In this document: positions 15,626 through 42,760 of the stretch, one piece after another
How positions within the stretch are numbered: the first letter of the stretch is position 1
Layout of the letters: every line of letters starts with the position of its first letter
DNA from: a phage
Sequence record: PZ445412.1
Direction: 5' to 3' (one strand)
DNA: 50,731 nucleotides
Notes under the pieces: generated by a model
The model's database searches: none
What the model was told of the DNA's origin: nothing
Seen by the model: the letters and a program-made list of their open reading frames with translations, nothing else
Position numbers and translations under genes: made by a program

Positions 15626-18600
15626 ATGATCAAAAATATGATAACTGGCAGTAAGGGCGGTTCTTCAAAGCCTCATACACCTGTTGAAATGGAAGATAAC
15701 CTAATTTCAATTAACAGGATCAGAATTCTTTTAGCTGTTTCTGATGGTGAAGTTGATCCAGACTTTTCATTGAAAGATTTATATTTTGATGACGTTCCGG
15801 TTATGAATCAGGATGGTTCGCTAAACTTTCAGAATGTTAAGGCGGAATTCAGACCAGGGACGCAAACGCAGGATTATATTCAGGGGTTTACTGATACAGC
15901 CAGCGAAATTACAGTTGCTCGCGATCTGACAGCCGCAACTCCTTATATTATTTCTGTTACCAATAAAAACCTTTCTGCGATCCGTATTAAAATTTTAATG
16001 CCTCGCGGGGTTACTCAGGAAGATAACGGAGATCTAACAGGTGTTCGCGTTGAATATGCTGTTGATATGGCTGTTGATGGCGCTGAATATAAAGAGGTTT
16101 TGCATGATGTAATTGAAGGTAAAACAATGAGCGGTTACGACAGAAGCCGCCGAATTGATTTACCTGCTTTCAATGAGCGTGTTTTATTGCGCGTCCGTCG
16201 CCTTACAGATAGCACGTCAGCAAGGGTAACGGATCTGATTAAAATGCAAAGCTATGCGGAAGTTGTAGACGCTAAATTTCGTTACCCACTGACTGGTTTA
16301 GTATATGTTGAGTTTGACAGCGAATTATTCCCTAATGCGTTGCCGAATATCAGCATTAAGAAAAAATGGAAAATCATTAATGTTCCGTCAAATTATGATC
16401 CTATTTCCCGCACTTACTCAGGGTCATGGGATGGAACCTGGAAAAAGGCATGGAGTAATAACCCTGCTTTTGTTCTTTATGATTTGATTACCAATCAGCG
16501 TTACGGACTCGATCAAAGAGAGTTAGGCATCGCGCTTGATAAATGGAGCATTTACGAATGTGCGCAGTATTGCGATCAGATGGTTCCAGACGGTAAAGGC
16601 GGAACAGAGCCGCGCTATCTTTGCGACGTTGTGATCCAGAGCCAGGTAGAGGCGTATCAGCTTGTGCGTGATATTTGTTCAATATTCCGTGGCATGAGCT
16701 TTTGGAATGGTGAAAGCCTTTCAATCGTGATCGATAAGCCTCGCGATGCGTCATACATCTTTACTAATGACAACGTGGTTAACGGTGAATTCACTTACAC
16801 GTTTGCCAGCGAAAAAAGCATGTACACGCAATGCAACGTGACTTTCGACGACGAACAAAACATGTATCAACAGGATGTTGAGGGAGTTTTCGAAACTGAG
16901 GCGGCGTTACGCTTTGGCTATAACAGCACGTCAATTACTGCGATTGGATGCACACGACGCAGCGAAGCCAACCGCCGTGGACGCTGGATTTTAAAAACCA
17001 ACGTCAAGAGCACAACGGTAAACTTTGCTACAGGTCTGGAAGGTATGATCCCAACAGTAGGCGATGTGATTGTTGTATCGGATAACTTCTGGTCAAGCGC
17101 TCTAACGCTGAATCTATCAGGTCGAGTGATGGAGGTTAGCGGGTTGCAGGTGTTCACGCCGTTTAAGGTAGACGCAAGAGCAGGTGATCGCATTCTGGTA
17201 AATAAGCCGGATGGTAAGCCAGTTGGTCGAACCATTGCGCGTGTGAGTGATGACGGTAAAACGCTAACGCTAAACACGACATTTGGTTTTGACGTTCAGC
17301 CGGATACCATTTTTGCAATTGAGCGAACCGATATTGCACAGCAACGATATGTTGTAACCGGAATCACTAAGGGTGACGGTGATGAAGAATTTACCTACAA
17401 CATAACGGCTGTTGAATACGATCCGAACAAATACGATGAAATTGATTATGGCGTAAACATTGATGACCGTCCGACTTCAATCGTGCAGCCTGACATTTTG
17501 CCAGCACCGCAAAACGTCAAGATCGAATCTTATTCGCGAGTTGTCCAGGGCGCGAGCGTGGAAACAATGCATGTTTCATGGGATAAGGTTGAATATGCAA
17601 GCCTTTATGAAATGCAGTGGAGAAAAGACAATGGCAACTGGAACAACACGCCGCGCACAGCCAACAAGGAAACGGAAGTTGAAGGAATTTATGAGGGTAA
17701 CTATCACGTAAGGGTTAGATCTGTTGCAGCGAATGGTTCAGCGTCTGGATGGTCAGCAATTGTAAGCGCCGGATTAACTGGCAAGGTTGGCGAACCGGAA
17801 AGGCCAATTAACCTTACTGCGTCTGACAATGAAGTTTTCGGAATTCGCGTAAAATGGGGTATGCCAGAAGGAAGCGGAGACACGGCATATATTGAGTTGC
17901 ATCAAGCGCCAAACGGTTCTGATGGTCATCCTATTGTTGATGAAGCAACGCTCTTAACGCTGATACCGTTCCCGCAATATGAGTATTGGCATTCAATACT
18001 GCCAGCGGGTCATGTTGTCTGGTACAAGGCAAGGGCAGTTGACAAAATCGGTAACGTTTCTGATTGGACTGATTTTGTGCGCGGCATGGCTTCCGACGAT
18101 ACGAGCATTATCACGGATCATATTAAGGTCGATATTGAAAATTCTGATGGCTATAAGTGGTTGCAGGAAAACGCAATAAAGGCCAATGATAAGATCCACA
18201 GCACAGCGGAATCAGTGATTGAAAACGCATTAGCGAATGATAAAGATGTTCGACGTATGCGAGTTGAAAACGGAAAGCGTAAAGCGGAGTTCTTGCAATC
18301 GCTGAAACTCATTGCAGACGAAACAGAAGCAAGGGTAACGCAGGTCACTCAAATGAGTGTGCAATTTGACGAGAAATTAACGGCTCAAAATAGCGAATTG
18401 AGAGAGGTTATTGCTAACAGCACTGAAACCATTAGCCAAAGGATTGATCAGCTTACAGCTACGTTTGAGAGCGAAATTGATGGTGTTAAGCAGGATATCA
18501 AAGCACAGATAACTGATGTTAACCAGGCAATCACCAATGAATCGGAAGCGCGAGCATCAGCGGATAGGGCGTTATCAACTCAAATTGGTGATACCCAATC

Positions 18601-19402
18601 AGCGGTTAACCAGAAACTTGATTCATGGGTTAACGGTACAAGCGTTGGTGCGATGTACGGAGTTAAGTTGGGGATCAGGTATAACGGGCAGGAATATAGC
18701 GCAGGTATGGCTCTTTCTCTTGTCGCTGATGGTGGCGGAGTTAAATCACAATTCCTGTTTGATGCCGGAAGATTTGCGATCATCAACAATGCTCAAAGCG
18801 GAGCCTTTACATTGCCGTTTGTAGTTGAGAATAACCAGGTGTTTATCAATAGCTTGCTTGTGAAAAACGGCTCTATTGGTAACGCTCAGATAGCTAACTT
18901 CATTAACTCTAACAACTGGCAAAGCGGTGTTGCAGGTTGGGCGATTAACAAGGATGGTTATGCCGAATTCAACCAAGTAACTGTAAGGGGTGGCGTTTAT
19001 GCTTCATACGGATCATTCACTGGCAGCGTTTACGCGCAAGACGGATGGTTTAGGGGTACTGTTTACGCTGAAAAAATTGAGGGTGACGTTGCAAAGGCTG
19101 TTGTTCTTCCGTTTAACGGATCGGTTCACATTCCGGCGGTTAACTATAACAGACACCTTGTGATCCCTTATGTTGGTATTCACGGGTACACATATTCAGG
19201 TGGTACATGGGGCGGCGGTACTGTTTGGGTTGATTCAACATATGGTGGTCGCCTTGCTAACGTTCGGGCAACTGCAATGCATGGCGGATCAAGTGGTTAT
19301 GTTCTGTTGCCAGCAGGTAACGCAACCACGCTTTCATATGGTGGAGATCTAAACCACGCAAACGCAGTACCGATCTTAACAGTTCTGTTATTCAAAGCAT
19401 AA
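15626..19402 (+). CDS. central tail fibre / host specificity protein (lambda J-like)
   Basis: 1258-aa ORF, largest gene, downstream of K/I-like genes; strong terminator downstream. Confidence 0.85.
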   Translation: MIKNMITGSKGGSSKPHTPVEMEDNLISINRIRILLAVSDGEVDPDFSLKDLYFDDVPVMNQDGSLNFQNVKAEFRPGTQTQDYIQGFTDTASEITVARDLTAATPYIISVTNKNLSAIRIKILMPRGVTQEDNGDLTGVRVEYAVDMAVDGAEYKEVLHDVIEGKTMSGYDRSRRIDLPAFNERVLLRVRRLTDSTSARVTDLIKMQSYAEVVDAKFRYPLTGLVYVEFDSELFPNALPNISIKKKWKIINVPSNYDPISRTYSGSWDGTWKKAWSNNPAFVLYDLITNQRYGLDQRELGIALDKWSIYECAQYCDQMVPDGKGGTEPRYLCDVVIQSQVEAYQLVRDICSIFRGMSFWNGESLSIVIDKPRDASYIFTNDNVVNGEFTYTFASEKSMYTQCNVTFDDEQNMYQQDVEGVFETEAALRFGYNSTSITAIGCTRRSEANRRGRWILKTNVKSTTVNFATGLEGMIPTVGDVIVVSDNFWSSALTLNLSGRVMEVSGLQVFTPFKVDARAGDRILVNKPDGKPVGRTIARVSDDGKTLTLNTTFGFDVQPDTIFAIERTDIAQQRYVVTGITKGDGDEEFTYNITAVEYDPNKYDEIDYGVNIDDRPTSIVQPDILPAPQNVKIESYSRVVQGASVETMHVSWDKVEYASLYEMQWRKDNGNWNNTPRTANKETEVEGIYEGNYHVRVRSVAANGSASGWSAIVSAGLTGKVGEPERPINLTASDNEVFGIRVKWGMPEGSGDTAYIELHQAPNGSDGHPIVDEATLLTLIPFPQYEYWHSILPAGHVVWYKARAVDKIGNVSDWTDFVRGMASDDTSIITDHIKVDIENSDGYKWLQENAIKANDKIHSTAESVIENALANDKDVRRMRVENGKRKAEFLQSLKLIADETEARVTQVTQMSVQFDEKLTAQNSELREVIANSTETISQRIDQLTATFESEIDGVKQDIKAQITDVNQAITNESEARASADRALSTQIGDTQSAVNQKLDSWVNGTSVGAMYGVKLGIRYNGQEYSAGMALSLVADGGGVKSQFLFDAGRFAIINNAQSGAFTLPFVVENNQVFINSLLVKNGSIGNAQIANFINSNNWQSGVAGWAINKDGYAEFNQVTVRGGVYASYGSFTGSVYAQDGWFRGTVYAEKIEGDVAKAVVLPFNGSVHIPAVNYNRHLVIPYVGIHGYTYSGGTWGGGTVWVDSTYGGRLANVRATAMHGGSSGYVLLPAGNATTLSYGGDLNHANAVPILTVLLFKA

Positions 19403-19415
19403 AAGGAGTTAAATC

Positions 19416-19450
19416 AATGCCCTGGCTTAACGGTCGGGGCATTTTGTTTT
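19416..19450 (+). terminator. rho-independent terminator after J
   Basis: ATGCCC...GGGGCAT followed by TTTTGTTTTC. Confidence 0.6.
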
Positions 19451-19862
19451 CTTTTGTTCCACGATGTTCACAACCGAATCCGGCGTAAAATTGAAAACGT
19501 CTTGATAACAAAAAGAACAAATTAAATATCTATATAATACATACACTTAGAGTTTAATTATTATTATATATATCTATTTGTATTCTTCTTGTTTCCATTG
19601 TTCTCTATGGTTTGTGGTGGTTGTGTGTTTTGTATTGGTTGATGGTTATATATCACATGGTATGTATTTATATATGGTATGCGGCGTAAATGCGTAAACA
19701 ATGGAACGCAAAAACAACAATTAGTAAAATCATAAACTTACGATGTGATTTTGTTGTCAATGCTAGTTGTAAACGTATGCAAAACAAAAAGAACACTTAA
19801 AGGGTATTGACTACATGCAACAAAGACATATAATGCAGACATACCAACGAGAGGATGACCAA

Positions 19863-20918
19863 ATGAGCGATTTTAAAGTTTACACCTTTGACCAGTTAAC
19901 CAATGATGAATATCACGATCCTAAAGGTTGGGCGGCTGAATACGTTAGCGGTTCAAGCCTGGCAGAAATCTTTGCAACTTGTCCGGCAGCATGGAAATAC
20001 AGACCACGCGAAGAAAGCAAAGCTCTTGTTTTCGGTACGCAGTCACATACCAACTTTCAAAGCAGTGAGTTGTTCGCAAAAGAGTACCGCCGAGCGCCAG
20101 CGCCGGAAGATTACGAAAACTTAATCACAAGCCAAACGGCATTAGCAAGCAAGTTAAAATCTTTTGGCCTGACTGGTACATCTGGGAAAACCTATCCAGA
20201 TCTGATTAAGATGATTGTTGATTGCGGTGAGGATCTTAATGTTCAGTGGCTGATTGAAATGATCGCAGAGAGCCAGGCGCGAGCGGATAAAGTTGAATTG
20301 GTTCCGGCTAAAGATTACGACGCTTGCGTTACCATGCGCCGCGTACTGGAAAGCATACCGGAACACAACGCTTGCATGAATAGCCCAACAGCACAACGCG
20401 AGCTATCAATTTTCGGCACTATCAAAGGCGTGAAAGTCAAAGTAAGGCTTGACCATGTTGATATTTGCAAGGATGTGCTTGCAACAGTGATTTCCGGCTA
20501 TGGTGGTGATGGTAATCCGGTATATGAAACAACGCGATTTGATGAAGCGATTGTGATCACGGATTATAAAACAACGTCAAGCGCTAACCCGTCAGAGTTT
20601 GCAAGGCTGGCATTCGATCATGGCTACTACTTGAAAATGGCATTGCAGCATGACCTATTCAAGAAAGCGTATCCAGAAGAAACGCGCCCCGTAGTAGTCA
20701 GATTGCTGGCGCAGGAAAAGAAAGAGCCTTATTTACCGATCGCATACCGCATGACGGATGAACAATTGAAGATCGGACGGCTTCAATACATGAGTGTGAT
20801 AAACCAGTTTGCAGAATGCCAGGTAAATGACGTTTGGCCTTCATACGCAAACGGAGAGCCGGAAATTGATCTTCAAACACCTGATTGGGTTCGTCGTCAA
20901 TACAAAGGTTTTTTATAA
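19863..20918 (+). CDS. PD-(D/E)XK-family exonuclease (RecE-like recombination nuclease)
   Basis: Motifs RLDHVD and ITDYKTT (D...D/E-x-K); precedes Erf-like and SSB genes; start MSDFKVY at 19863. Confidence 0.5.
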   Translation: MSDFKVYTFDQLTNDEYHDPKGWAAEYVSGSSLAEIFATCPAAWKYRPREESKALVFGTQSHTNFQSSELFAKEYRRAPAPEDYENLITSQTALASKLKSFGLTGTSGKTYPDLIKMIVDCGEDLNVQWLIEMIAESQARADKVELVPAKDYDACVTMRRVLESIPEHNACMNSPTAQRELSIFGTIKGVKVKVRLDHVDICKDVLATVISGYGGDGNPVYETTRFDEAIVITDYKTTSSANPSEFARLAFDHGYYLKMALQHDLFKKAYPEETRPVVVRLLAQEKKEPYLPIAYRMTDEQLKIGRLQYMSVINQFAECQVNDVWPSYANGEPEIDLQTPDWVRRQYKGFL

Positions 20919-24469: not shown

Positions 24470-26389
24470 TTATGGTAGTTCTGGAATTGTTGTGGCATTA
24501 CCTCCAGCCAATCCAGCAATCATTTCCTTCAATTGTTCAATATCAGCTTTTAAACTTGAAACTTCACTTTCTAACGCTTCATTTTTACCCTGCAACTCTT
24601 GAACAACAACAATAAGATCAGAAATAACGGCGCGATCATTAACGTTCATGATTTCGAATTCATCACCGTTTTCATCTGTTGCAGTTCCGCCAAAGAAAAC
24701 GTAAGTGTCGTCTATTTCAGCCATTTGTTGCGCAAGGTATCCACGCTGCAAAACATGGTTTCCCTTATAATAAAACTCCATAACACCAATCTGTTTAACG
24801 CGATCCCATGCGCCAGGCTTAGGAGGTTCAAATCTATCCTTAATACGAACATCAGATCCCTGAATAGCGCAGCGCCCCTCAGGTGTATAGAATCCATTAT
24901 CGTTTCGCATCGAGTACCATACGACACTACCGCCAAATGTGTTAAAAGACCAAACATATTGATACTGTTGCCCAGGGACACCTGCAACATAGTTTTGAAC
25001 ACCAAACCACGAGTTTTCAACATATGTAAGAAGGTTTGCGCCATCGCTTGATTGTTGAGATTTTTCTTTAATCAAAGCAGCAGTCCACGGGCCTCCCTGA
25101 CCATAATAAGCCTTAGCCCACACCGCATTAAATGTAACATCCTGATCAATTCCAACCCCTAAATTTCGTCTTGCTTGAGCTACATTATCAGCACCAGTAC
25201 CACCTTGCGCAATACCTAGAGCCGACCAACCTTTTAGATAGCGATTGAACATACCCCATGTTCCATCATTCCTTACAGATATCTCTTTTAAACCATCTGG
25301 AGAAAGCATTGACGTGAAAACAGAATCCTGAATTATTCTATCAACTTGCAAATTTATTTTTGCTTGCGTAACGTTTTCAGCACCAGTGCCGCCAGCGCCA
25401 ATAGAAAGTGCCGATGTGCTGTTGTTGTCATTACGTGCAACTCGCCATTCTCCATTGTTAGCGATCCGCAATTCATAAGTCCATGCAGGATTTCTGAAAG
25501 AGTTGTAAGCGCCAGTATCTTGATCTTTTACAGAATTAACCGCCTCAACTTTCAAAGCTTCCCTTGCAAGGTCTTTGTTTGCAAGATCATTAAGGTTTTG
25601 ATCCTTATGCAGCAGATTTTCAGGTTGCACCTGTTGCGCCCATTGGCGAGCTTCATCACGCGCAGTCTCAGCGCCAGCCTTTGCATTATCAGCACCAACC
25701 TTTGATTGCTCTGCGGCGAATTGTGCGTTTTCCGCTTCATCACGCGCGTCTAACGCTTCATTTTTAATTCCGGTTATCTCAGTAACGGCAGAATCTTTAA
25801 TCTGTTGCGTTTGGTTTTTTATTGCGTCCGTGTCTGCCTTAATCTGATTGGTTTCGGCAACAGCGGCATTCTTAATCTGTTGAGTTTCAGAAACAGCGGT
25901 ATCCTTAATCTGTTGCGTTTCAGTAACAGCAGCATCCTTTATTGTTTGCGTGTAGTTTTTTAATTGTTCCGTCGCGGCTCGGTCTGCATCAGTTTTTTGC
26001 GCGGAAGCCTCAGCGCGAGCAACAAGATCCTGTATTGTTTTTAAATCAAAGTTTTTGAAAAATTCAATCGCTTCCTCAATAACAGTTTCTTTACTTTGGT
26101 AATAGCGCAGCGTTTCCGCAACATCTTGCGCCATTCCATCTACCGTTAAAGAGTCATTCAACAGGATCACATAATTTCCGTTTTCTACTGGCTCGCCGTC
26201 AGTCTGGATCGCTTTCATTTCCGTGTCACTTACAATATCGCTAATCACAGCCAATTTAAGAGGCGATGTGAGAAATACGATTGTTGCGCCAGCGCGGATA
26301 AGAGAAAGAGGCTCACGCCATTTTGTGCCAGTACCAGTAATAACGCCTTGCGCGTCCATTGCAGCCGTACCAGTGCGATATAAAGCCAT
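24470..26389 (-). CDS. side tail fibre with C-terminal chaperone-like domain
   Basis: 639 aa; about 11-aa tandem repeats (TQQIKDTAVSE-like); C-terminal coiled-coil tail; own sigma70-like promoter and terminator. Confidence 0.7.
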   Translation of the reverse strand: MALYRTGTAAMDAQGVITGTGTKWREPLSLIRAGATIVFLTSPLKLAVISDIVSDTEMKAIQTDGEPVENGNYVILLNDSLTVDGMAQDVAETLRYYQSKETVIEEAIEFFKNFDLKTIQDLVARAEASAQKTDADRAATEQLKNYTQTIKDAAVTETQQIKDTAVSETQQIKNAAVAETNQIKADTDAIKNQTQQIKDSAVTEITGIKNEALDARDEAENAQFAAEQSKVGADNAKAGAETARDEARQWAQQVQPENLLHKDQNLNDLANKDLAREALKVEAVNSVKDQDTGAYNSFRNPAWTYELRIANNGEWRVARNDNNSTSALSIGAGGTGAENVTQAKINLQVDRIIQDSVFTSMLSPDGLKEISVRNDGTWGMFNRYLKGWSALGIAQGGTGADNVAQARRNLGVGIDQDVTFNAVWAKAYYGQGGPWTAALIKEKSQQSSDGANLLTYVENSWFGVQNYVAGVPGQQYQYVWSFNTFGGSVVWYSMRNDNGFYTPEGRCAIQGSDVRIKDRFEPPKPGAWDRVKQIGVMEFYYKGNHVLQRGYLAQQMAEIDDTYVFFGGTATDENGDEFEIMNVNDRAVISDLIVVVQELQGKNEALESEVSSLKADIEQLKEMIAGLAGGNATTIPELP

Positions 26390-27529: not shown

Positions 27530-28138
27530 TTAGCAATCAGTGCTATCGACGGAAATCACAACGCGTTTCTTCTGATTGGCTTCCTTTGCTTTGCGCCGTT
27601 CTTCTTTCGCCTTTTCGCGTTCAGCTTTGCGCCGCGCTTTCTCCTTCTCGCGTTCTTCTGGACTCATAGACCGCAACGGATCGTAAGGCCGCACAAATCC
27701 TCTTGCTTCCGCTTCCTCTTTGGTTACAAATCGCATCAGCTTTCTGTTGCTGCAACGATTCTCTAATGGCTTGCCGTTATTATCAAATTTGATATCTGGA
27801 CGGCAATATGAAGCGCGGAAGCCGTTAAAACCTTTGCGTCGGTAATCTTTCTGGATCAGTTCAGCGCCTTTAGTTGAAATCATGCCGCGCTCTTTCCATC
27901 CCCATACTGTTTTAAGGTTAACGCCAATTTCACGCGCCAGGGCAGCGCAACCGCCGTAAGCGTTGACAACTTCATCAAGCCGCGCTTTTAATCCGGCTCT
28001 TACTTCTTCCTTTAATACAAGATAACCGCTAACAGGTGCGCGACGTTTACGATCTTTACCACGTCTTACGCCGTTGTTACCATTGATTGTTCGTTTGTCG
28101 ATTTCGCCAGTTGAGGCAGCAATTTTGATTTCGCTCAT
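27530..28138 (-). CDS. HTH DNA-binding protein with basic C-terminal tail
   Basis: HTH-like segment CAALAREIGVNLKTVWGWKERG; Lys/Arg/Glu-rich C-terminus; first gene of leftward unit upstream of primase. Confidence 0.4.
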   Translation of the reverse strand: MSEIKIAASTGEIDKRTINGNNGVRRGKDRKRRAPVSGYLVLKEEVRAGLKARLDEVVNAYGGCAALAREIGVNLKTVWGWKERGMISTKGAELIQKDYRRKGFNGFRASYCRPDIKFDNNGKPLENRCSNRKLMRFVTKEEAEARGFVRPYDPLRSMSPEEREKEKARRKAEREKAKEERRKAKEANQKKRVVISVDSTDC

Positions 28139-28148
28139 ATTTTCACCT

Positions 28149-28170
28149 GTAGCACTTTTTGCTAAAAAAC
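28149..28170 (+). promoter_or_regulatory. conserved 22-bp box upstream of helicase
   Basis: GTAGCACTTTTTGCTAAAAAAC followed by TATGATAT and a small hairpin. Confidence 0.5.
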
Positions 28171-28226
28171 TTGATTAAGTTTGTGTATGATATGCCTCAA
28201 ATGGCATTTAGTCAAAAGGATAAAAA

Positions 28227-30200
28227 ATGATTCCTAACATTGAAAAGCAGATTGCAGATCTTGGAGAGGAAAGAATTAAGGCAATCCAGAAGCGTTTCAC
28301 GGTTGGTGAGATTGTCCCGTATGAATACCAATGCGTTGCTTACGCTGAAATTGCAAAGCGCTTGAGCAAGTATGTCGATCCGTTTTTCGTTAAAGCGGCG
28401 GTATCGGCAGGTAAAACAATAATCTTTGCTATGGTTGCGGCTCAGTGTCGGAAAATGGGATTGAAAGCGTTATTTCTGGCGCGTCAATCTGAAATCGTGG
28501 ATCAGGATTCAAAAGAGATTAGCGCCTTTGGTGTTCCGAATTCCGTTTATTGCGCTGGCCTGAATACCAAAAGCGCTTATTTCCCGATTGTTGTCGGATC
28601 GGAAGGTACTGTAATTGGTGGATTGAATAAAGCGTTAGGTGATTACGTCCCACAGGTTTTAGGTATAGATGAATGTCATCAAGTCAACTGGAATGATATT
28701 GTTGAAGCCGAGGAAAACGGCGAAAGCATAGAGCAAATGATGACGCCGAAAGGTGAACCAGTTGAAGGGCATCCATTGCTGATTGGTTCAGGACGCGCAC
28801 AATACACCATTATCATTGCAGAAATGCGCCGCCGTTGTCTTGAGACTTACGGTCATCAGTTGCGCATATTTGGAATGACCGGATCGGAATATCGCGGAAT
28901 TGAGCCGATACTTGTCGAAGATAAAAGAATTCCTGGGTTTTGGCGTGAGCAGATCACAAACATTGATACTGATTACCTGGTAAAATTTGGTTCAGTTGTT
29001 CCCACATATTTTGGCAATGTTGGTGATTTGGGTTACGACTTATCAGAATTTACGCCAGTGCATGAATTTGGCGTTGCTGATTATGACCAGAAGCAATTAA
29101 AGGCCATGAGTGACAAGATTCACCAATCAGTAACCATGACGCAGAAAATAATGCAGATGGTTCATGAGGTAATGAAAAACCGCTTATGTGCTCTTGTTAC
29201 TTGCGCTGACGAAAGGCACTGCAAAGAGGCGGCGGCGGCGCTTCCGTCTGGCACGAAATATCACATTATTACCGGAAAAACTGGAGAGAAACAGCGGCGC
29301 TTATGGCTTGAGGATGCCTATGAAGGGCGCGTGAAATACATCTTCCAGGTTCAGGCGCTAACAACTGGCGTTAACGTTCCGCCGTGGGATACTTCTGTGA
29401 TTTTGCGTAAGATCGGAAGCCTGACGCTATTAACTCAGCTTTTGGGGCGTGGTATGCGTCAATTAAAAACTTACCATAAAGAAGTATTGGGAATGCACAA
29501 AACGGATCACCTTGTTTTGGATTTTTCCGGCACGATGTTTGAAATGGGTAATTTGTATTTCGATCCTATGTTAGAGCAAGCGCAATTCCAGTTGCGTAAA
29601 TCACAGGATAAAGATCCGAAATATTGCCCGATTTGCGGCACAGAAAATTCATTCTATGCTCGCCGTTGCATTAATGAGGATGAAAACGGAAATCGTTGTG
29701 AACATTTCTGGACGTTCCAGGAGTGTGAGGATCAGATTGATGACCGCACAAAGAAAGTTATTGTAAAAGGTTGCGGCGCAAAAAATGACGTTGCTGCGCG
29801 TGTATGCCGTTGCTGTAATGTTCAGTTACGCGATCCAAATGATAACTTGTCCGGCAAGATGTACCGTAAAAACGATTGGTGCGACGTGTTAGATTTTAAT
29901 GTGACGCTGACAAAAAACCAGGCTGGCGTAATATTCTGCTACACGTTGCGTGATAGTGGCGGCGTAGAATTCAGGGCATACGAAAAATATTTCCCTGAAT
30001 CAGAACACAAGATATGCAAAACGCTTTGGACAAAGGCGGTTAGAACTCACGTTATAGATCGCCAGGCCGCAAACTTTATGATCACTTGCCGCAATGCAAT
30101 TAAGATCATGAGTTATGCGGGGCAAATATTGCCGCCAAAACGTGTTACCCATCGCAAGAACACAAAGAAAGAAGATTTGATCGCACAGAAGGAGTTTTAA
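28227..30200 (+). CDS. superfamily-2 ATP-dependent helicase with C-terminal zinc ribbons
   Basis: Walker A AVSAGKT, DExH box GIDECHQ, C-terminal CPICG...C..C and CG...CRCC pairs. Confidence 0.7.
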   Translation: MIPNIEKQIADLGEERIKAIQKRFTVGEIVPYEYQCVAYAEIAKRLSKYVDPFFVKAAVSAGKTIIFAMVAAQCRKMGLKALFLARQSEIVDQDSKEISAFGVPNSVYCAGLNTKSAYFPIVVGSEGTVIGGLNKALGDYVPQVLGIDECHQVNWNDIVEAEENGESIEQMMTPKGEPVEGHPLLIGSGRAQYTIIIAEMRRRCLETYGHQLRIFGMTGSEYRGIEPILVEDKRIPGFWREQITNIDTDYLVKFGSVVPTYFGNVGDLGYDLSEFTPVHEFGVADYDQKQLKAMSDKIHQSVTMTQKIMQMVHEVMKNRLCALVTCADERHCKEAAAALPSGTKYHIITGKTGEKQRRLWLEDAYEGRVKYIFQVQALTTGVNVPPWDTSVILRKIGSLTLLTQLLGRGMRQLKTYHKEVLGMHKTDHLVLDFSGTMFEMGNLYFDPMLEQAQFQLRKSQDKDPKYCPICGTENSFYARRCINEDENGNRCEHFWTFQECEDQIDDRTKKVIVKGCGAKNDVAARVCRCCNVQLRDPNDNLSGKMYRKNDWCDVLDFNVTLTKNQAGVIFCYTLRDSGGVEFRAYEKYFPESEHKICKTLWTKAVRTHVIDRQAANFMITCRNAIKIMSYAGQILPPKRVTHRKNTKKEDLIAQKEF

Positions 30201-30610: not shown

Positions 30611-30626
30611 CACTTTTTGTTAAAAC
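30605..30626 (+). promoter_or_regulatory. conserved 22-bp box plus hairpin element
   Basis: AAATAGCACTTTTTGTTAAAAC; hairpin GGCGCA-acggaa-TGCGCC; CATAATGCAC; AGAACGAAACGGAG. Confidence 0.6.
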
Positions 30627-30681
30627 AGGCGCAACGGAATGCGCCATAATGCACCCATCAGAACGAAACGGAGAATTAACC

Positions 30682-31968: not shown

Positions 31969-31985
31969 CACTTTTTGTTAAAAAT
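31963..31985 (+). promoter_or_regulatory. conserved 22-bp box plus hairpin element
   Basis: Box then hairpin TGCCCC-gcgaaagt-GGGGCA, ATAATCA, TCAACGAAAC. Confidence 0.6.
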
Positions 31986-32038
31986 GCCCCGCGAAAGTGG
32001 GGCATAATCATTTCAACGAAACACGATAGGGCTTTAAG

Positions 32039-37942: not shown

Positions 37943-37997
37943 TTGATTTATCTCCTTTTGTTTCGACGAGTGCATTATGCCGGATTCTAGATCCGGC

Positions 37998-41434: not shown

Positions 41435-41573
41435 ACATCACCTCACCAAATTCACCAACGATTTGAGCCTTATAAAAACCGCCTTTACTTGCAATGTTAT
41501 ATGCTGCGTGCATTGGCATTTCGAATTGTTCAGCTTTGCTGTTTTCGTGCTCCCAGGTAATCAGTACGACCAT
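41418..41573 (-). CDS. hypothetical small protein, first gene of leftward operon
   Basis: Start MVVLITWEHE at 41573 with RBS GAGGAT after box 41629-41650. Confidence 0.4.
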   Translation of the reverse strand: MVVLITWEHENSKAEQFEMPMHAAYNIASKGGFYKAQIVGEFGEVMYEFHA

Positions 41574-41628
41574 TTTGTAATCCTCAATTCGTTTCGATGA
41601 AGTAATCATAGCAATTCGTGACTGATTG

Positions 41629-41650
41629 GTTTTAACAAAAAGTGCTATTC
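41629..41650 (-). promoter_or_regulatory. conserved 22-bp box, first element of leftward operon
   Basis: Box followed by CCAATCAG, CACGAATTGCTA and TCATCGAAACGAATTGAGG. Confidence 0.55.
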
Positions 41651-41656
41651 ATGCGA

Positions 41657-41684
41657 TAGACCGATTGGTCTAGACCGTTTGGTC
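41657..41684. promoter_or_regulatory. two abutting 14-bp palindromes (operator-like)
   Basis: AGACCGATTGGTCT and AGACCGTTTGGTCT just upstream of the first leftward box. Confidence 0.55.
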
Positions 41685-41721
41685 TAATGAACACATCGTT
41701 TTCTGTATCGAACGGATTCAC

Positions 41722-41815
41722 GATCACGTTATGCGATCACAATATGATCATGTTGATGATTGATGTGTGAGTTGATTTGATTTTATTTGATGGGATTTGA
41801 TTAGATTTGAGTAGC
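41722..41815. repeat. GATC cluster plus 10-bp-phased ATTTGA iterons (candidate origin or protein-binding array)
   Basis: Three GATC within 30 bp; ATTTGA at 41775, 41785, 41795, 41805 with exact 10-bp spacing. Confidence 0.6.
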
Positions 41816-42248
41816 TAGTGAGCAGAAATAATCACACCTTGCCGATCAGAGAAAACTTTTCCCGCAAAACATCACTCCAGGCTAGCTCTTGTCTCAATCT
41901 GTTTTCTGCTGTCTCAATTCGCACATTCCGCAAAAAAGCGAAACGGTTCACAAACAGAAAGAACAAATAAATCACCTATATAATAATAATAAAATCAACT
42001 AGTTAGTTATATATATCTATTTATGGTTATATATCTGTCTTAGTTGTTCTGTCTATATAGGCATACCCTGGTATATTTCAATTTATATATTGATATTGGT
42101 ATCTATGGGTATATATATCTATATATGCTCGATTTCCGGCGCAAACTGGTGAACAGGCGAAAAAGACAAGCGTTTTCATTGCTTTGCGTTGAAATTTGTC
42201 TCAAATCGCATATTGAAATGTATTAAGAACCAAAAGAACTTGACACGT

Positions 42249-42275
42249 TATAGAACAAGTTATAACATTCACGGC
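42249..42275 (+). promoter_or_regulatory. sigma70-like promoter candidate for rightward early genes
   Basis: TTGACA, 15-nt spacer, TATAAC; followed by ACCAATCAGGAGG leader. Confidence 0.35.
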
Positions 42276-42304
42276 GTACCAAAAACCAATCAGGAGGAAA
42301 AACA

Positions 42305-42760
42305 ATGGAAGAATTCGACTACATCCCAATGAAAGATTTCTGCAACGGCCTACGCGAAAAGGCAAAGAGCATTGCAGAAGGTGAACCACTAGTGATCCCG
42401 TTGGCTATGCTGGTTCAAAAACTGCATCCAGAAGATGCGAGAAAGGTTACAGCCAGCTACATAAGAACCATCCTTGTGCGCACACCTGAAATCAAAGAGA
42501 AAGGAAGCGTGAGCATCAAGAAGTGCAATTGCCCGGATCGCGGTGAATACCTTGAAGTGACGCTCAACGAAAACAAAAAGCGTCGAGTGATCACAAGTGA
42601 CGACCTTCCAGCAATCAAGGAGGCGGCTGTAAGTAGCGCTTTCGAGAAGTTTATGCACATTCAGCCTGACGTTACAGATCTTGAAGGTGATCAGTTAGTT
42701 GGTGCTACTGTAGCGTTGCGCCGCATGAAAAATCTGATTAAGTCAATGATTAAGGGGTGA
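42305..42760 (+). CDS. hypothetical protein, first gene of rightward early block
   Basis: 151 aa; RBS CAGGAGGA; TTGACA promoter-like hexamer upstream at 42249. Confidence 0.5.
   Translation: MEEFDYIPMKDFCNGLREKAKSIAEGEPLVIPLAMLVQKLHPEDARKVTASYIRTILVRTPEIKEKGSVSIKKCNCPDRGEYLEVTLNENKKRRVITSDDLPAIKEAAVSSAFEKFMHIQPDVTDLEGDQLVGATVALRRMKNLIKSMIKG

Follow-up and report, generated by a model that had tools for sequence, protein, structure and literature searches.

Several phages carry cis-acting sites with which the DNA described here can be compared. The T4 origins oriF(uvsY) and oriG and the primary origin of T7 are primed by transcription, and a T4 origin is located at the promoter of a recombination gene. 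The OL/OR sites of lambda, the O1-IHF-O2 early operator of Mu and the gal repressosome are systems of distant operators that use looping or an IHF/HU bend, and P4 has two separate cis sites, ori and crr, which contain the same short repeats (TGTTCACC) and are recognised by one helicase-type initiator. [quoted passage not shown] For the Drexlerviridae, two papers reported that no replication origin was found (PMC11447400, PMC7718038), and the 2024 TLS re-annotation described no origin-like repeats anywhere in the genome and listed unexplained non-coding repeats among its open questions. A search of the literature returned nothing on Drexlerviridae transcription start sites or origins.

The stretch of DNA that was analysed (the window, 50,731 nucleotides) is 100% identical to MZ501059.1, Escherichia phage DanielBernoulli (Bas08; Drexlerviridae, Tlsvirus), in which each coordinate equals the window coordinate plus 536. 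The gene set of this phage includes a primase, two helicases and recE/erf/ssb. The original prediction was that a segment of about 100 bp at 19511-19610 is duplicated at 41957-42060. When region A (around the first copy) was compared with the rest of the window by blastn, one outstanding match was obtained, between 19507-19579 and 41953-42022 (80% of 76 nt, E 4e-8), and softer scoring extended it to 19478-19794 against 41925-42239 (E 8.5e-12). A profile for nhmmer, made from the copies upstream of recE in relatives only and excluding the window sequence, matched the window at just two places, both on the plus strand: 19507-19609 (E 1.6e-13) and 41953-42052 (E 5.2e-8). The blastn and nhmmer results therefore show that the duplication is real and that its coordinates had been placed correctly to within a few bases. 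The Smith-Waterman score of region A against region B was 33, compared to 14.0 +/- 2.1 for dinucleotide shuffles (0/1000 as high) and 16.3 +/- 3.2 for shuffles of 25-nt blocks that preserve local AT content (1/1000), so that the alignment is significant and low-complexity AT similarity alone is rejected. We refer to the duplicated segment as the core. The parts of region A, all on the plus strand, are as follows.

19416-19452, plus strand: intrinsic terminator with a 12-bp stem followed by TTTTGTTTT, belonging to the J-like tail tip gene and marking the left limit of region A
19455-19472, plus strand: two tandem TGTTC(C)AC boxes with a 10-bp period (TGTTCCAC, TGTTCACA), from the sequence and GAACA/TGTTC clustering
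19481-19690, plus strand: span between two direct copies of CGGCGTAAA (19481-19489 and 19682-19690), which are 201 bp apart
19507-19609, plus strand: core element, copy A (blastn, shuffles, nhmmer)
19514-19520, 19533-19538, 19567-19574 and 19598-19604, plus strand: copy A sub-motifs AGAACAA, TATAAT, TATATATC and TTGTTCT, respectively
19605-19681, plus strand: tract rich in G+T and poor in C that contains TGGT/GGTT repeats (G 29 / C 8 per 100 nt)
19785-19834, plus strand: proximal early promoter P_recE (promoter scan; TLS P51; activity of T1 PrecE-gfp, PMC6737242)
19789, 19807-19812, 19829-19834 and 19863, plus strand: P_recE elements, namely a AAAAAGAACAC box (AAGAACA at 19789), -35 TTGACT, -10 TATAAT and the recE ATG

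The terminator of the J-like tail tip gene has been annotated likewise in phage Stevie. The parts of region B are as follows.

41630-41649, minus strand: 21-nt marbox-like repeat in the promoter of the leftward early operon, the first gene of which starts at 41573 (PMC11447400)
41722-41810, plus strand: pac-like segment found in region B only, with GATC four times within 28 bp (41722-41749) and GATTTGA three times (41774-41810)
41953-42052, plus strand: core element, copy B (blastn; nhmmer E 5e-8)
41960-41966, 41979-41984 and 42044-42050, plus strand: copy B boxes AGAACAA, TATAAT and TTGTTCT, respectively
41993-42005, 42010 and 42028, plus strand: copy B inner motifs, a perfect IHF consensus core AATCAACTAGTTA (41993-42005) and TATATATC at 42010 and 42028
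42053-42155, plus strand: tract after the core that contains TGGTAT/GGGTAT repeats, TATATATC for the third time (42112) and CGGCGCAAA (42137)
42226-42268, plus strand: proximal early promoter of the rightward operon (promoter scan; TLS P01)
42240-42245, 42252-42258 and 42263-42268, plus strand: elements of this promoter, namely -35 TTGACA abutted by AAAAGAAC, AGAACAA in the spacer, and -10 TAACAT

Each copy is thus part of a module of about 350-400 bp that consists of an AT-rich core of about 100 bp, a G+T-rich tract on the same strand and a sigma-70 early promoter at the end. Beyond the cores, a weaker similarity between A and B continues for about 320 nt and reaches the promoter in both regions. 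The remaining descriptive parts of the original prediction also held: both copies lie upstream of plus-strand gene blocks, which begin with recE (ATG 19863) and the DUF7174 gene (ATG 42305); the 100 nt after copy A are GT-rich (G 29 / C 8 / T 40 / A 23); and there is no open reading frame of at least 60 aa within 19403-19814. A related-locus search using the DUF7174 protein (42305-42760) gave no confirmed relative. Core A plus the GT tract are contained in the span 19481-19690 bounded by CGGCGTAAA, but this bracket is weak evidence, because the motif lacks genome specificity. Only in phage Rtp is the flanking CSGCRNAAA motif specific to regions A and B. Across core B, an inverted GTGAACA box (42149-42155) faces GGTTCAC (41945-41951).

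The core was found at positions -370 to -250 relative to the recE ATG in 41 IMG/VR relatives, even where the remaining spacer could not be aligned. Tls-like phages, Klebsiella phage K50PH164C1 and Hanrivervirus G29-2 have a second copy in the divergent region, 7-10 kb upstream of terL, as do 6 of 7 further genomes (E 6e-13 to 5e-38). In this search for terL relatives a single-protein query yielded close relatives only, and an alignment query was needed for wider reach; a degenerate AT-rich DNA pattern run over IMG/VR returned mostly unrelated contigs and was of no use for finding second copies. Tls, T1, Rtp and six further IMG/VR genomes all have the pair of cores, with one copy invariably preceding recE and the other 7-10 kb ahead of terL, and both positions are orthologous across three subfamilies. 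The distance from the core to the downstream ATG is likewise conserved, at about 320-400 nt, at both positions and in all lineages.

These observations bear on the idea that the similarity arose by chance between AT-rich sequences, or that a small MITE-like element was inserted twice. A and B are the most AT-rich regions of the genome and the core has terminal inverted repeats, in line with this idea, but the similarity exceeds that of shuffles which preserve local composition, the independent profile finds just these two sites, and the two copies have fixed orthologous positions across subfamilies and do not qualify as MITEs. Furthermore, neither plasmids nor 5,426 E. coli genomes contained a copy of the core. 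On these grounds we rejected this explanation, which we regard as extremely improbable.

In several lineages, the two copies within a genome resemble each other more than they resemble their orthologues. The A-versus-B score of a genome was greater than any cross-genome score in T1 (35), Rtp (84) and three of the IMG/VR genomes (L038, 100; L030, 91; L039, 62), which points to concerted evolution, as far as the sequences indicate. It was also found that each lineage has flanking motifs of its own. All 6 genome occurrences of TGTAACA in T1 (p 2.5e-10) and all 6 of CCGCGGA in Rtp (p 3e-9) are in the two regions, as are 5 of the 11 occurrences of AGAACAA in Bas08 (p 2.9e-6); in Rtp, four TACGC repeats phased at 10 bp abut both cores, and in Tls the density of GAACA peaks at A and B. 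Therefore, the likeness of A and B within lineages, combined with the lineage-specific motifs, points to a shared, lineage-specific DNA-binding factor.

The duplex stability of the four genomes Bas08, Tls, T1 and Rtp was compared in 80-bp windows, and the lowest-stability windows genome-wide were exactly the two cores in each, with copy A the least stable and copy B the second in Bas08. The dG of the cores was -73 to -80 kcal/mol, relative to a genome mean of -108 (sd 5.8) and to values of -87 to -89 for the third-ranked window in the four phages. Both cores in all four phages are therefore markedly weaker than their surroundings, as expected of an AT-rich unwinding element.

The core is flanked by the inverted boxes AGAACAA and TTGTTCT, the 84-nt offset of which is identical in copies A and B. 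The arms of this dyad covary over 27 copies (GAACA with TGTTC, AAACA with TGTTT) at a spacing of 86-89 nt, and 72.5% of cells were paired, compared to 39-54% in slid controls. A perfect IHF consensus, WATCAANNNNTTR, is present at a fixed offset near the core midpoint in 16 of 46 copies, including copy B, and is missing from copy A here and from every Tls-like A copy. In a Keio screen using the Tls-like phage LL5, no ihf dependence was reported (PMC7229145). Of the 46 distinct copies, 33 have a TATAAT hexamer at a fixed offset, as do both copies of T1 and copy B of Rtp, and the hexamer is preceded in register, at 18-19 nt, by an A[AG]AACA box. In T1, Rtp and Tls the edge of the core carries the 12-mer TGTATAKCRTGT. 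Over the 100 nt that follow the core, the mean composition across relatives was G 24 and C 12, with G in excess of C in 42 of 45 distinct copies; copy B of Bas08 has a weak strand bias (G 18 / C 15 per 100 nt). By composition, the non-template strand downstream of the core is thus G-rich. The two regions of Bas08 each contain just 3-5 short GAACA-type boxes, and no long iterons were found in them.

It had been suggested that the duplicated segment could be a small-RNA gene. A search of Rfam gave nothing at the gathering threshold, or at E<=1 beyond noise, neither core is followed by a terminator, and RNAalifold found 0 conserved pairs in 27 copies, with covariation in the 7-nt outer dyad only. 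Both cores of the window fold as single strands into a long imperfect hairpin with a z of only about -2.2, and the Tls cores fold less well (z -0.5 and -1.6). The small-RNA suggestion is therefore not supported, as no match, terminator or conserved fold was found.

A pac site, or an accessory site of terminase, used at two places was another of the suggested roles. Copy B lies about 190 bp from the restriction-mapped pac of TLS, position 1 of the TLS record (this pac, AGATTT) aligns at about 41765, and the T1, TLS and Rtp records all begin about 130-220 bp to the left of their own B cores. IHF-assisted pac or cos sites exist, for example in P1 and lambda. However, the GATC cluster and the GATTTGA repeats, like the mapped pac to the left of core B, are confined to region B and absent from region A, and if there were another pac 22 kb away, in the same orientation, a second packaging series would result, whereas TLS virion DNA shows one submolar pac fragment (PMC11447400). 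Several of the record starts are set by convention and not by data (Sazh: PMC6908799), and the starts of the LL5 and Sazh records inside region B are conventional and therefore provide no evidence for termini. It appears very improbable that packaging is the role of the shared segment.

With regard to promoters, the proposal of a duplicated promoter cassette was right in that each region ends in a sigma-70 consensus promoter (19807-19834, TTGACT-16-TATAAT; 42240-42268, TTGACA-17-TAACAT), but it did not hold for the conserved core itself, which lies about 230-330 bp upstream. The shared segment contains a -10-like hexamer only and no sigma-70 cassette with -35 and -10 elements at 16-18 bp. Genome-wide, there are three intergenic sigma-70 consensus promoters, of which two end regions A and B and the third is P_pir; the same three, including P51 and P01, are listed in the TLS paper. 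The core could nevertheless be a distal promoter in which an activator box 12-13 bp upstream of TATAAT replaces the -35 element, producing a long GU-rich leader or a non-coding transcript into recE and the rightward early operon. The fixed offset of TATAAT in most of the distinct copies, the A[AG]AACA box in register with it and the absence of a terminator between the core and the downstream gene are consistent with this possibility. We consider it quite unlikely, however, because the core has neither a -35 nor an extended -10 element and the consensus scan made no call, whole clades (L012, L014 and L023-L036) lack TATAAT and retain the other parts of the core, the IHF core would overlie the predicted start site, and neither a conserved RNA fold nor an Rfam match was found.

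A stronger alternative, which we think possible but somewhat doubtful, is that the core serves the two early promoters as an operator or enhancer module. In this reading, a phage regulator (Pir or another early HTH protein) would use the boxes as its operators, looping of the AT-rich, IHF-bendable core would allow operators far apart to cooperate, and the two copies would stay alike because both answer to one regulator. The operators of lambdoid phages and their repressor show a within-genome co-variation like that of the A and B copies. Two of the three intergenic sigma-70 promoters are 230-300 bp downstream of a core, the homology runs from the core as far as the promoter, and the conserved core-to-ATG distance fits a transcriptional role at least as well as an origin. 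In addition, GAACA boxes are beside or inside both proximal promoters (19789, 42234, 42252), and the 84-bp box offset corresponds to eight helical turns. Like lambda, Mu and gal, Bas08 would have two related control regions beside early promoters that co-vary with its own regulator, with a candidate IHF/HU-bent segment between putative half-sites separated by integral helical turns; unlike in those systems, the boxes measure 5-7 bp, have about 88 nt between them and are 230-330 bp away from the sigma-70 promoters. In T1 the promoter works and is regulated without the core, and nothing comparable to the immunity or lysogeny system of lambda is present. Specifically, a T1 PrecE fragment without the core is an active promoter that is repressed by Pir and cAMP-CRP (PMC6737242); this repression speaks for control by a phage regulator, but because the fragment does not include the core, the core is dispensable for basal activity and Pir control. 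Moreover, AGAACAA is absent from the promoter regions of pir, dam and holin, all of which are Pir-controlled in T1, P_pir has no such module, and the extreme conserved duplex instability, the G+T strand bias and the 12-mer are left unexplained. We rejected AGAACAA as a general Pir operator, because the sequence between pir and the helicase gene (28139-28226) does not contain it and none was found near the dam and holin promoters.

Our best single reading, which we hold tentatively, is that the cores are a pair of origin-type unwinding sites comparable to oriL and oriR of SPP1. The sequences show how the parts are arranged and conserved, that each genome has a pair, where the melting minima fall and that the boxes covary, and from this we infer protein binding, unwinding and origin activity at the cores. 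The origin and operator readings stand close, and we prefer the former. The two cores would be the two cis-acting DNA-opening sites of the phage: a lineage-specific phage DNA-binding protein would sit on the boxes either side of the core, the core would be folded between them by IHF or intrinsic bending, and the duplex would open there and replication start. The arrangement might be two origins, or one origin with an additional site that binds the initiator, as in SPP1 oriL/oriR or P4 ori/crr, and priming may be coupled to rightward transcription from the -10-like element of the core, as for T4 oriF/oriG and the T7 primary origin.

Several observations count against an origin. The nearest replication genes (primase and helicase at 26.5-30.2 kb, DUF3987 helicase at 35.7-37.3 kb) are 4.7-6.7 kb from the cores, so that the location beside an initiator gene, which is typical but not universal, was not found. 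The minima of duplex stability are accounted for by AT-richness alone, the TATAAT of the core has no -35 partner, and visual inspection revealed no convincing DnaA boxes. The lack of reported ihf dependence in LL5, the missing IHF consensus of copy A and the GAACA boxes at the proximal promoters, placed as operators would be, also count against it. The cumulative GC skew tracks gene orientation and transcription and gave no independent origin signal. In the search for a trans-acting factor, comparison of a 130-aa HTH protein, Pir and the DUF3987 helicase with Pfam, PHROGs, NCBIfam and PDB sequences returned generic labels only. A single-sequence structure model of the 130-aa HTH protein was discarded (pLDDT 48.6).

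The origin reading can be set beside the known systems. Bas08 resembles SPP1 in being a siphovirus of the pac type, about 45-50 kb in size, and in having two widely separated sites, non-coding or partly coding, that are composed of repeats and AT-rich DNA. One of these is in a long intergenic region with transcription signals on both sides, and copy A is directly before recE-erf-ssb, in parallel with the second SPP1 site. The differences are that oriL is inside the initiator gene, with gp38 binding and origin activity proven, whereas the Bas08 sites are outside replication genes and known from sequence, and that the SPP1 repeats are tandem beside the AT element, whereas the Bas08 boxes are inverted around an AT core. 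The resemblance to T4 and T7 is in the order on one strand of a promoter-like -10 with an upstream activator-type box, an easily melted AT segment and a G-rich non-template tract. In contrast to those phages, the Bas08 core promoter is putative, with TATAAT absent in some clades, an R-loop is hypothetical, and Bas08 is without an RNA polymerase or known sigma-appropriation factors. P4 and Bas08 both have two cis sites that share short repeats, those of Bas08 being TGTTCAC, TGTTCCAC and TGTTCT. However, the P4 alpha protein unites primase and helicase in a fusion that has a known DNA-binding domain, crr is built from direct repeats of 120 bp rather than as an AT-rich dyad, and the motif resemblance may be coincidental.

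A more specific form of the origin reading, unlikely when taken as a whole, is a two-origin system of dyad-flanked, IHF-bent unwinding elements, in which a lineage-specific helicase-type initiator (for example, DUF3987 plus an HTH partner) would occupy the boxes 88 nt apart, rightward core transcription would prime across the G-rich tract, and the copy at recE-erf-ssb would control the switch from origin- to recombination-dependent replication. If true, such a system would represent a T4/SPP1-like logic new for T1-type phages.

T1 is one of Delbrück's seven classic phages, and Drexlerviridae phages are common in therapeutic collections and as laboratory contaminants. In phage engineering, the A and B non-coding regions should not be disrupted or used for insertion without testing. 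The analysis provides two sites of about 100 bp, conserved in at least three subfamilies, with explicit sub-motifs (the boxes, the IHF core and the 12-mer at the edge). Taken together, the paired modules are the strongest candidates to date for origins of replication or sites of early-gene control in the Drexlerviridae, and because they make clear predictions, the questions of origin and control in this family are experimentally testable.

The DNA is a complete phage genome, that of Escherichia phage DanielBernoulli (Bas08; Drexlerviridae, Tempevirinae, Tlsvirus), and its start is shifted by 536 nt from that of record MZ501059.1. The regions and copies compared were:

19403-19862, region A: flanked by the J-like tail tip gene (15626-19402) on the left and by recE/exonuclease VIII (ATG at 19863) on the right
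41574-42304, region B: divergent spacer separating leftward and rightward blocks of small early genes
19507-19609, plus strand: core of copy A
41953-42052, plus strand: core of copy B

Region B is the conventional linearisation spot of the T1, TLS and Rtp records, and region A opens with the J terminator. The position between J and the element is occupied in other Drexlerviridae by a receptor-binding-protein (RBP) locus with RBP and cor-like genes, which the TolC-dependent phages Bas08, TLS and LL5 lack (PMC8594841). It is because this locus is missing that the J terminator abuts the element in Bas08.

The original prediction, that a segment of about 100 bp at 19511-19610 is duplicated at 41957-42060, was evaluated by searching the remainder of the genome with region A (blastn), and one outstanding match was found, 19507-19579 with 41953-42022 (80% of 76 nt, E 4e-8), which softer scoring lengthened to 19478-19794 with 41925-42239 (E 8.5e-12). 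The local alignment score of 33 was reached by 0 of 1000 dinucleotide shuffles (14.0 ± 2.1) and by 1 of 1000 block shuffles preserving local composition. The strongest control was a profile made from the recE-upstream sequences of relatives only, with no sequence of this genome in it. It gave exactly two matches, 19507-19609 (E 1.6e-13) and 41953-42052 (E 5e-8), both on the plus strand, and none in the other AT-rich spacers of the genome. Therefore, the duplication is real, and an explanation by low complexity fails.

Both cores contain identical parts in identical order and register:

19514 (A) and 41960 (B): left box, AGAACAA
19533 (A) and 41979 (B): TATAAT
between TATAAT and the right box in both cores: A/T-rich centre, then TATATATC
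19598 (A) and 42044 (B): right box, TTGTTCT

The distance between the boxes, start to start, is exactly 84 nt in both copies. All five genome occurrences of TATATATC are on the plus strand and within A or B. Of the 11 occurrences of AGAACAA, both strands counted, 5 are within these regions (p 2.9e-6). A perfect IHF core, AATCAACTAGTTA, was found at 41993-42005 in copy B, near the midpoint between the boxes, and no match to this consensus in copy A. When all 80-bp duplex windows of a genome are ranked by stability, the two cores take the two lowest places in each of Bas08, Tls, T1 and Rtp: their dG is -73 to -80 kcal/mol, whereas the third-ranked window lies at -87 to -89 and the genome mean at -108 (sd 5.8).

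At the right edge of the core, a 12-mer, TGTATA[G/T]C[G/A]TGT, is common to T1, Rtp and TLS (copy B), with only one extra copy elsewhere in these genomes, inside Rtp region A; it was not found in Bas08. This motif, present in three subfamilies, is possibly the element's oldest recognition sequence. Its sites are:

T1: 298 and 30084
Rtp: 280, 28153 and 28278 (minus strand)
Tls: 276

In Rtp, CCGCGGAAA, with the palindrome TTTCCGCGGAAA, is confined to the two regions (378-389; 171, 28044), and core B lies between the copies at 171 and 381, which are about 210 bp apart. A loosely comparable arrangement exists in Bas08, where CGGCGTAAA stands at 19481 and 19682 but is not region-specific.

The pair was found across the family. 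The core lies at -370 to -250 from the recE ATG in 41 IMG/VR relatives (RecE 62-98% identical), in which the remaining recE-upstream spacer is about 55% identical and essentially unalignable. Eight Tls-like genomes, Klebsiella phage K50PH164C1 and Hanrivervirus G29-2 carry a B copy in the divergent spacer, at 7-10 kb upstream of terL. In other clades, six of seven further genomes had a single strong same-strand match to their recE-upstream element, again 7-10 kb upstream of terL (E 6e-13 to 5e-38, 158-306 nt); in one of the six, identity between A and B is about 88% over 130 nt, and the similarity persists up to the promoter. The pair is at 30016-30095 and 220-309 in T1 (Tunavirinae) and at 28005-28374 and 132-495 in Rtp (Braunvirinae; score 101, shuffles 15 ± 2.3).

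A score matrix of A against B copies over ten genomes showed that the genome's own A-B score tops its row and column for T1 (35), Rtp (84) and three others (L038, 100; L030, 91; L039, 62), exceeding or rivalling orthologue scores between lineages. This pattern is weakest in the Tls-like phages: the A copy has drifted, the own score is 30-38, and Bas08 copy B best matches the A copy of another genus (78). Every lineage has its own short G/C-containing motif almost restricted to the two regions: TGTAACA in T1 (6 of 6 genome occurrences, p 2.5e-10), CCGCGGA in Rtp (6 of 6, p 3e-9), which also has four TACGC repeats with 10-bp phasing abutting both cores, and GAACA/TGTTC variants in Tempevirinae, for which the top two density windows of Tls are A and B. 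In 27 diverse copies, the boxes, spaced at 86-89 nt, covary (GAACA with TGTTC in 9, AAACA with TGTTT in 13), and box cells are complementary in 72.5%, compared to 39-54% with one arm slid. Together, co-evolving copies, lineage motifs and box covariation argue for one lineage-specific factor that recognises the two arms as well as the two copies, for repeated gene conversion between A and B, or for a combination of these.

Several proposed functions lost ground. A small-RNA gene had been suggested, and we found no match to a known RNA family, no terminator after either core and, using RNAalifold on 27 copies, zero conserved pairing. As a single strand, the hairpin only marginally beats shuffles in the two Bas08 copies (z about -2.2), and it is weaker in both of those from Tls (z -0.5 and -1.6). 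No tRNA genes were found. A host-derived or mobile sequence was also considered, and neither 72,556 plasmids nor 5,426 complete E. coli genomes gave a match; in our estimation, chance similarity or a mobile element is scarcely credible.

Left of the core, and in region B only, are a 21-nt repeat promoter of the leftward operon and a pac-like segment:

41722-41810: four GATC in 28 bp (CGATCAC, CGATCAC, TGATCAT), then three GATTTGA

TLS position 1, the pac mapped by restriction analysis (AGATTT; PMC11447400), aligns here. That the shared segment is a pac site is very improbable: neither the pac-like repeats nor the mapped TLS pac extend beyond the left part of region B. In layout, the segment at 41722-41810 is similar to the Dam-regulated pac site of P1; Bas08 carries a gene for its own Dam methylase, and the T1 and Rtp records open amid similar short TGATTG-type repeats.

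The 21-nt intergenic repeat, aaATAGCACnnnTTGnTAAAA, fits what we take to be the E. coli MarA/SoxS/Rob 'marbox' consensus, AYNGCACNNWNNRYYAAA. The genome has 17 such matches, where shuffles predict 0.08; every one is intergenic and points the same way as the gene that follows, and most have a -10-like hexamer about 19 nt past the motif. Examples are:

20919, 30607, 31965, 43408 and 47796, plus strand: marbox-like sites
38017, 40066 and 41648, minus strand: marbox-like sites
30626-30650, 31985-32005, 37975-37995 and others: hairpin-bearing repeat units

This arrangement suggests activator-dependent (class II-like) promoters using host Rob/MarA/SoxS or a phage analogue; Pfam, NCBIfam and PDB searches detected no AraC-family protein in the phage. 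In many units, a short GC-rich hairpin (GCGCAACGGAATGCGC, CCCCGCGAAAGTGGGG, CCGGATCTAGAATCCGG) occupies the spacer between repeat and -10; the next promoter thus seems to incorporate a terminator-like stem of the gene before it. The repeat is known in T1-like phages, with no function assigned (PMC11447400). A separate array at 25762-25951, of four direct repeats (the last three 33 nt apart), probably encodes a repeated 11-residue motif in the minus-strand ORF 24470-26389 (639 aa; annotated as hypothetical in TLS and as tail fibre in Rtp).

The GT-rich stretch noticed after copy A holds (29 G and 8 C in the following 100 nt), and nearly all copies have such a bias: downstream of the core, the plus strand has G>C in 42 of 45 copies and T>A in 44 of 45, and the 100 nt upstream show no G/T strand bias in the same copies. 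Both regions end in a sigma-70 promoter:

19807-19834, region A: TTGACT-16-TATAAT, 11/12 consensus
42240-42268, region B: TTGACA-17-TAACAT, 10/12 consensus

These are two of the genome's only three intergenic promoters of such quality, the same three listed by the TLS authors, and GAACA-type boxes also occur at them (19789; 42234 and 42252). A T1 PrecE-gfp fusion is active in uninfected E. coli and repressed by Pir (Orf23) and by cAMP-CRP (PMC6737242). The Pir homologue of Bas08 is at 27533-28138. According to its forward primer, the fusion fragment starts at T1 30178, downstream of the T1 core (30008-30100); therefore, neither the activity nor the regulation of the proximal promoter needs the core. 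A core acting as a distal promoter or leader, for which its TATAAT might serve, is unlikely.

Two models, which are not mutually exclusive, fit most of the data. Our tentative best reading is a pair of origin-type sites. The core, which melts easily and has inverted boxes for a putative phage-specific protein on either side, would be bent by IHF or by its own sequence and followed by a G-rich non-template strand, with a similarly organised site twice per genome. Possible as well, with slightly less confidence on our part, is a control module for the two early promoters, in which operators over about 300 bp with an IHF-bendable centre would cooperate by looping and co-vary with their regulator in the style of lambda OL/OR. 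Such a module accounts for the conserved distance to the promoters and for the boxes at them, whereas origin-type sites better explain the extreme, conserved duplex instability, the downstream strand bias and a promoter that does not need the core. The remaining probability goes to something not considered.

For origin-type sites, T4 and T7 offer a parallel: the activator-type box, TATAAT, unwinding element and G-rich tract follow one another in an order reminiscent of their transcription-primed origins. A precedent for two similarly organised sites is SPP1 oriL/oriR, of which the second is proposed to set off a change to recombination-dependent replication (PMC6316719); in Bas08, copy A lies directly before recE-erf-ssb. 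The TLS and SU57 papers both report that no origin was found (PMC11447400, PMC7718038), the latest TLS annotation reports no origin-like repeats (PMC11447400), and the searched literature contained no other report of an origin for Drexlerviridae. From the dependences listed for the Tls-like phage LL5 in a Keio screen, ihf, fis and hns are absent (PMC7229145).

The pair is undescribed in the searchable literature, with earlier mention possible in the genome papers of T1 (Virology 2004) or Rtp (J Bacteriol 2006). Familiar kinds include IHF sites, pairs of related control regions, and AT-rich unwinding elements with protein sites beside them, and this element, a putative origin or operator region, is best grouped with these. 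What appears to be new is the existence of the pair and its conservation across the Drexlerviridae, its fine structure, and the evidence for co-evolution of the two copies within each genome.
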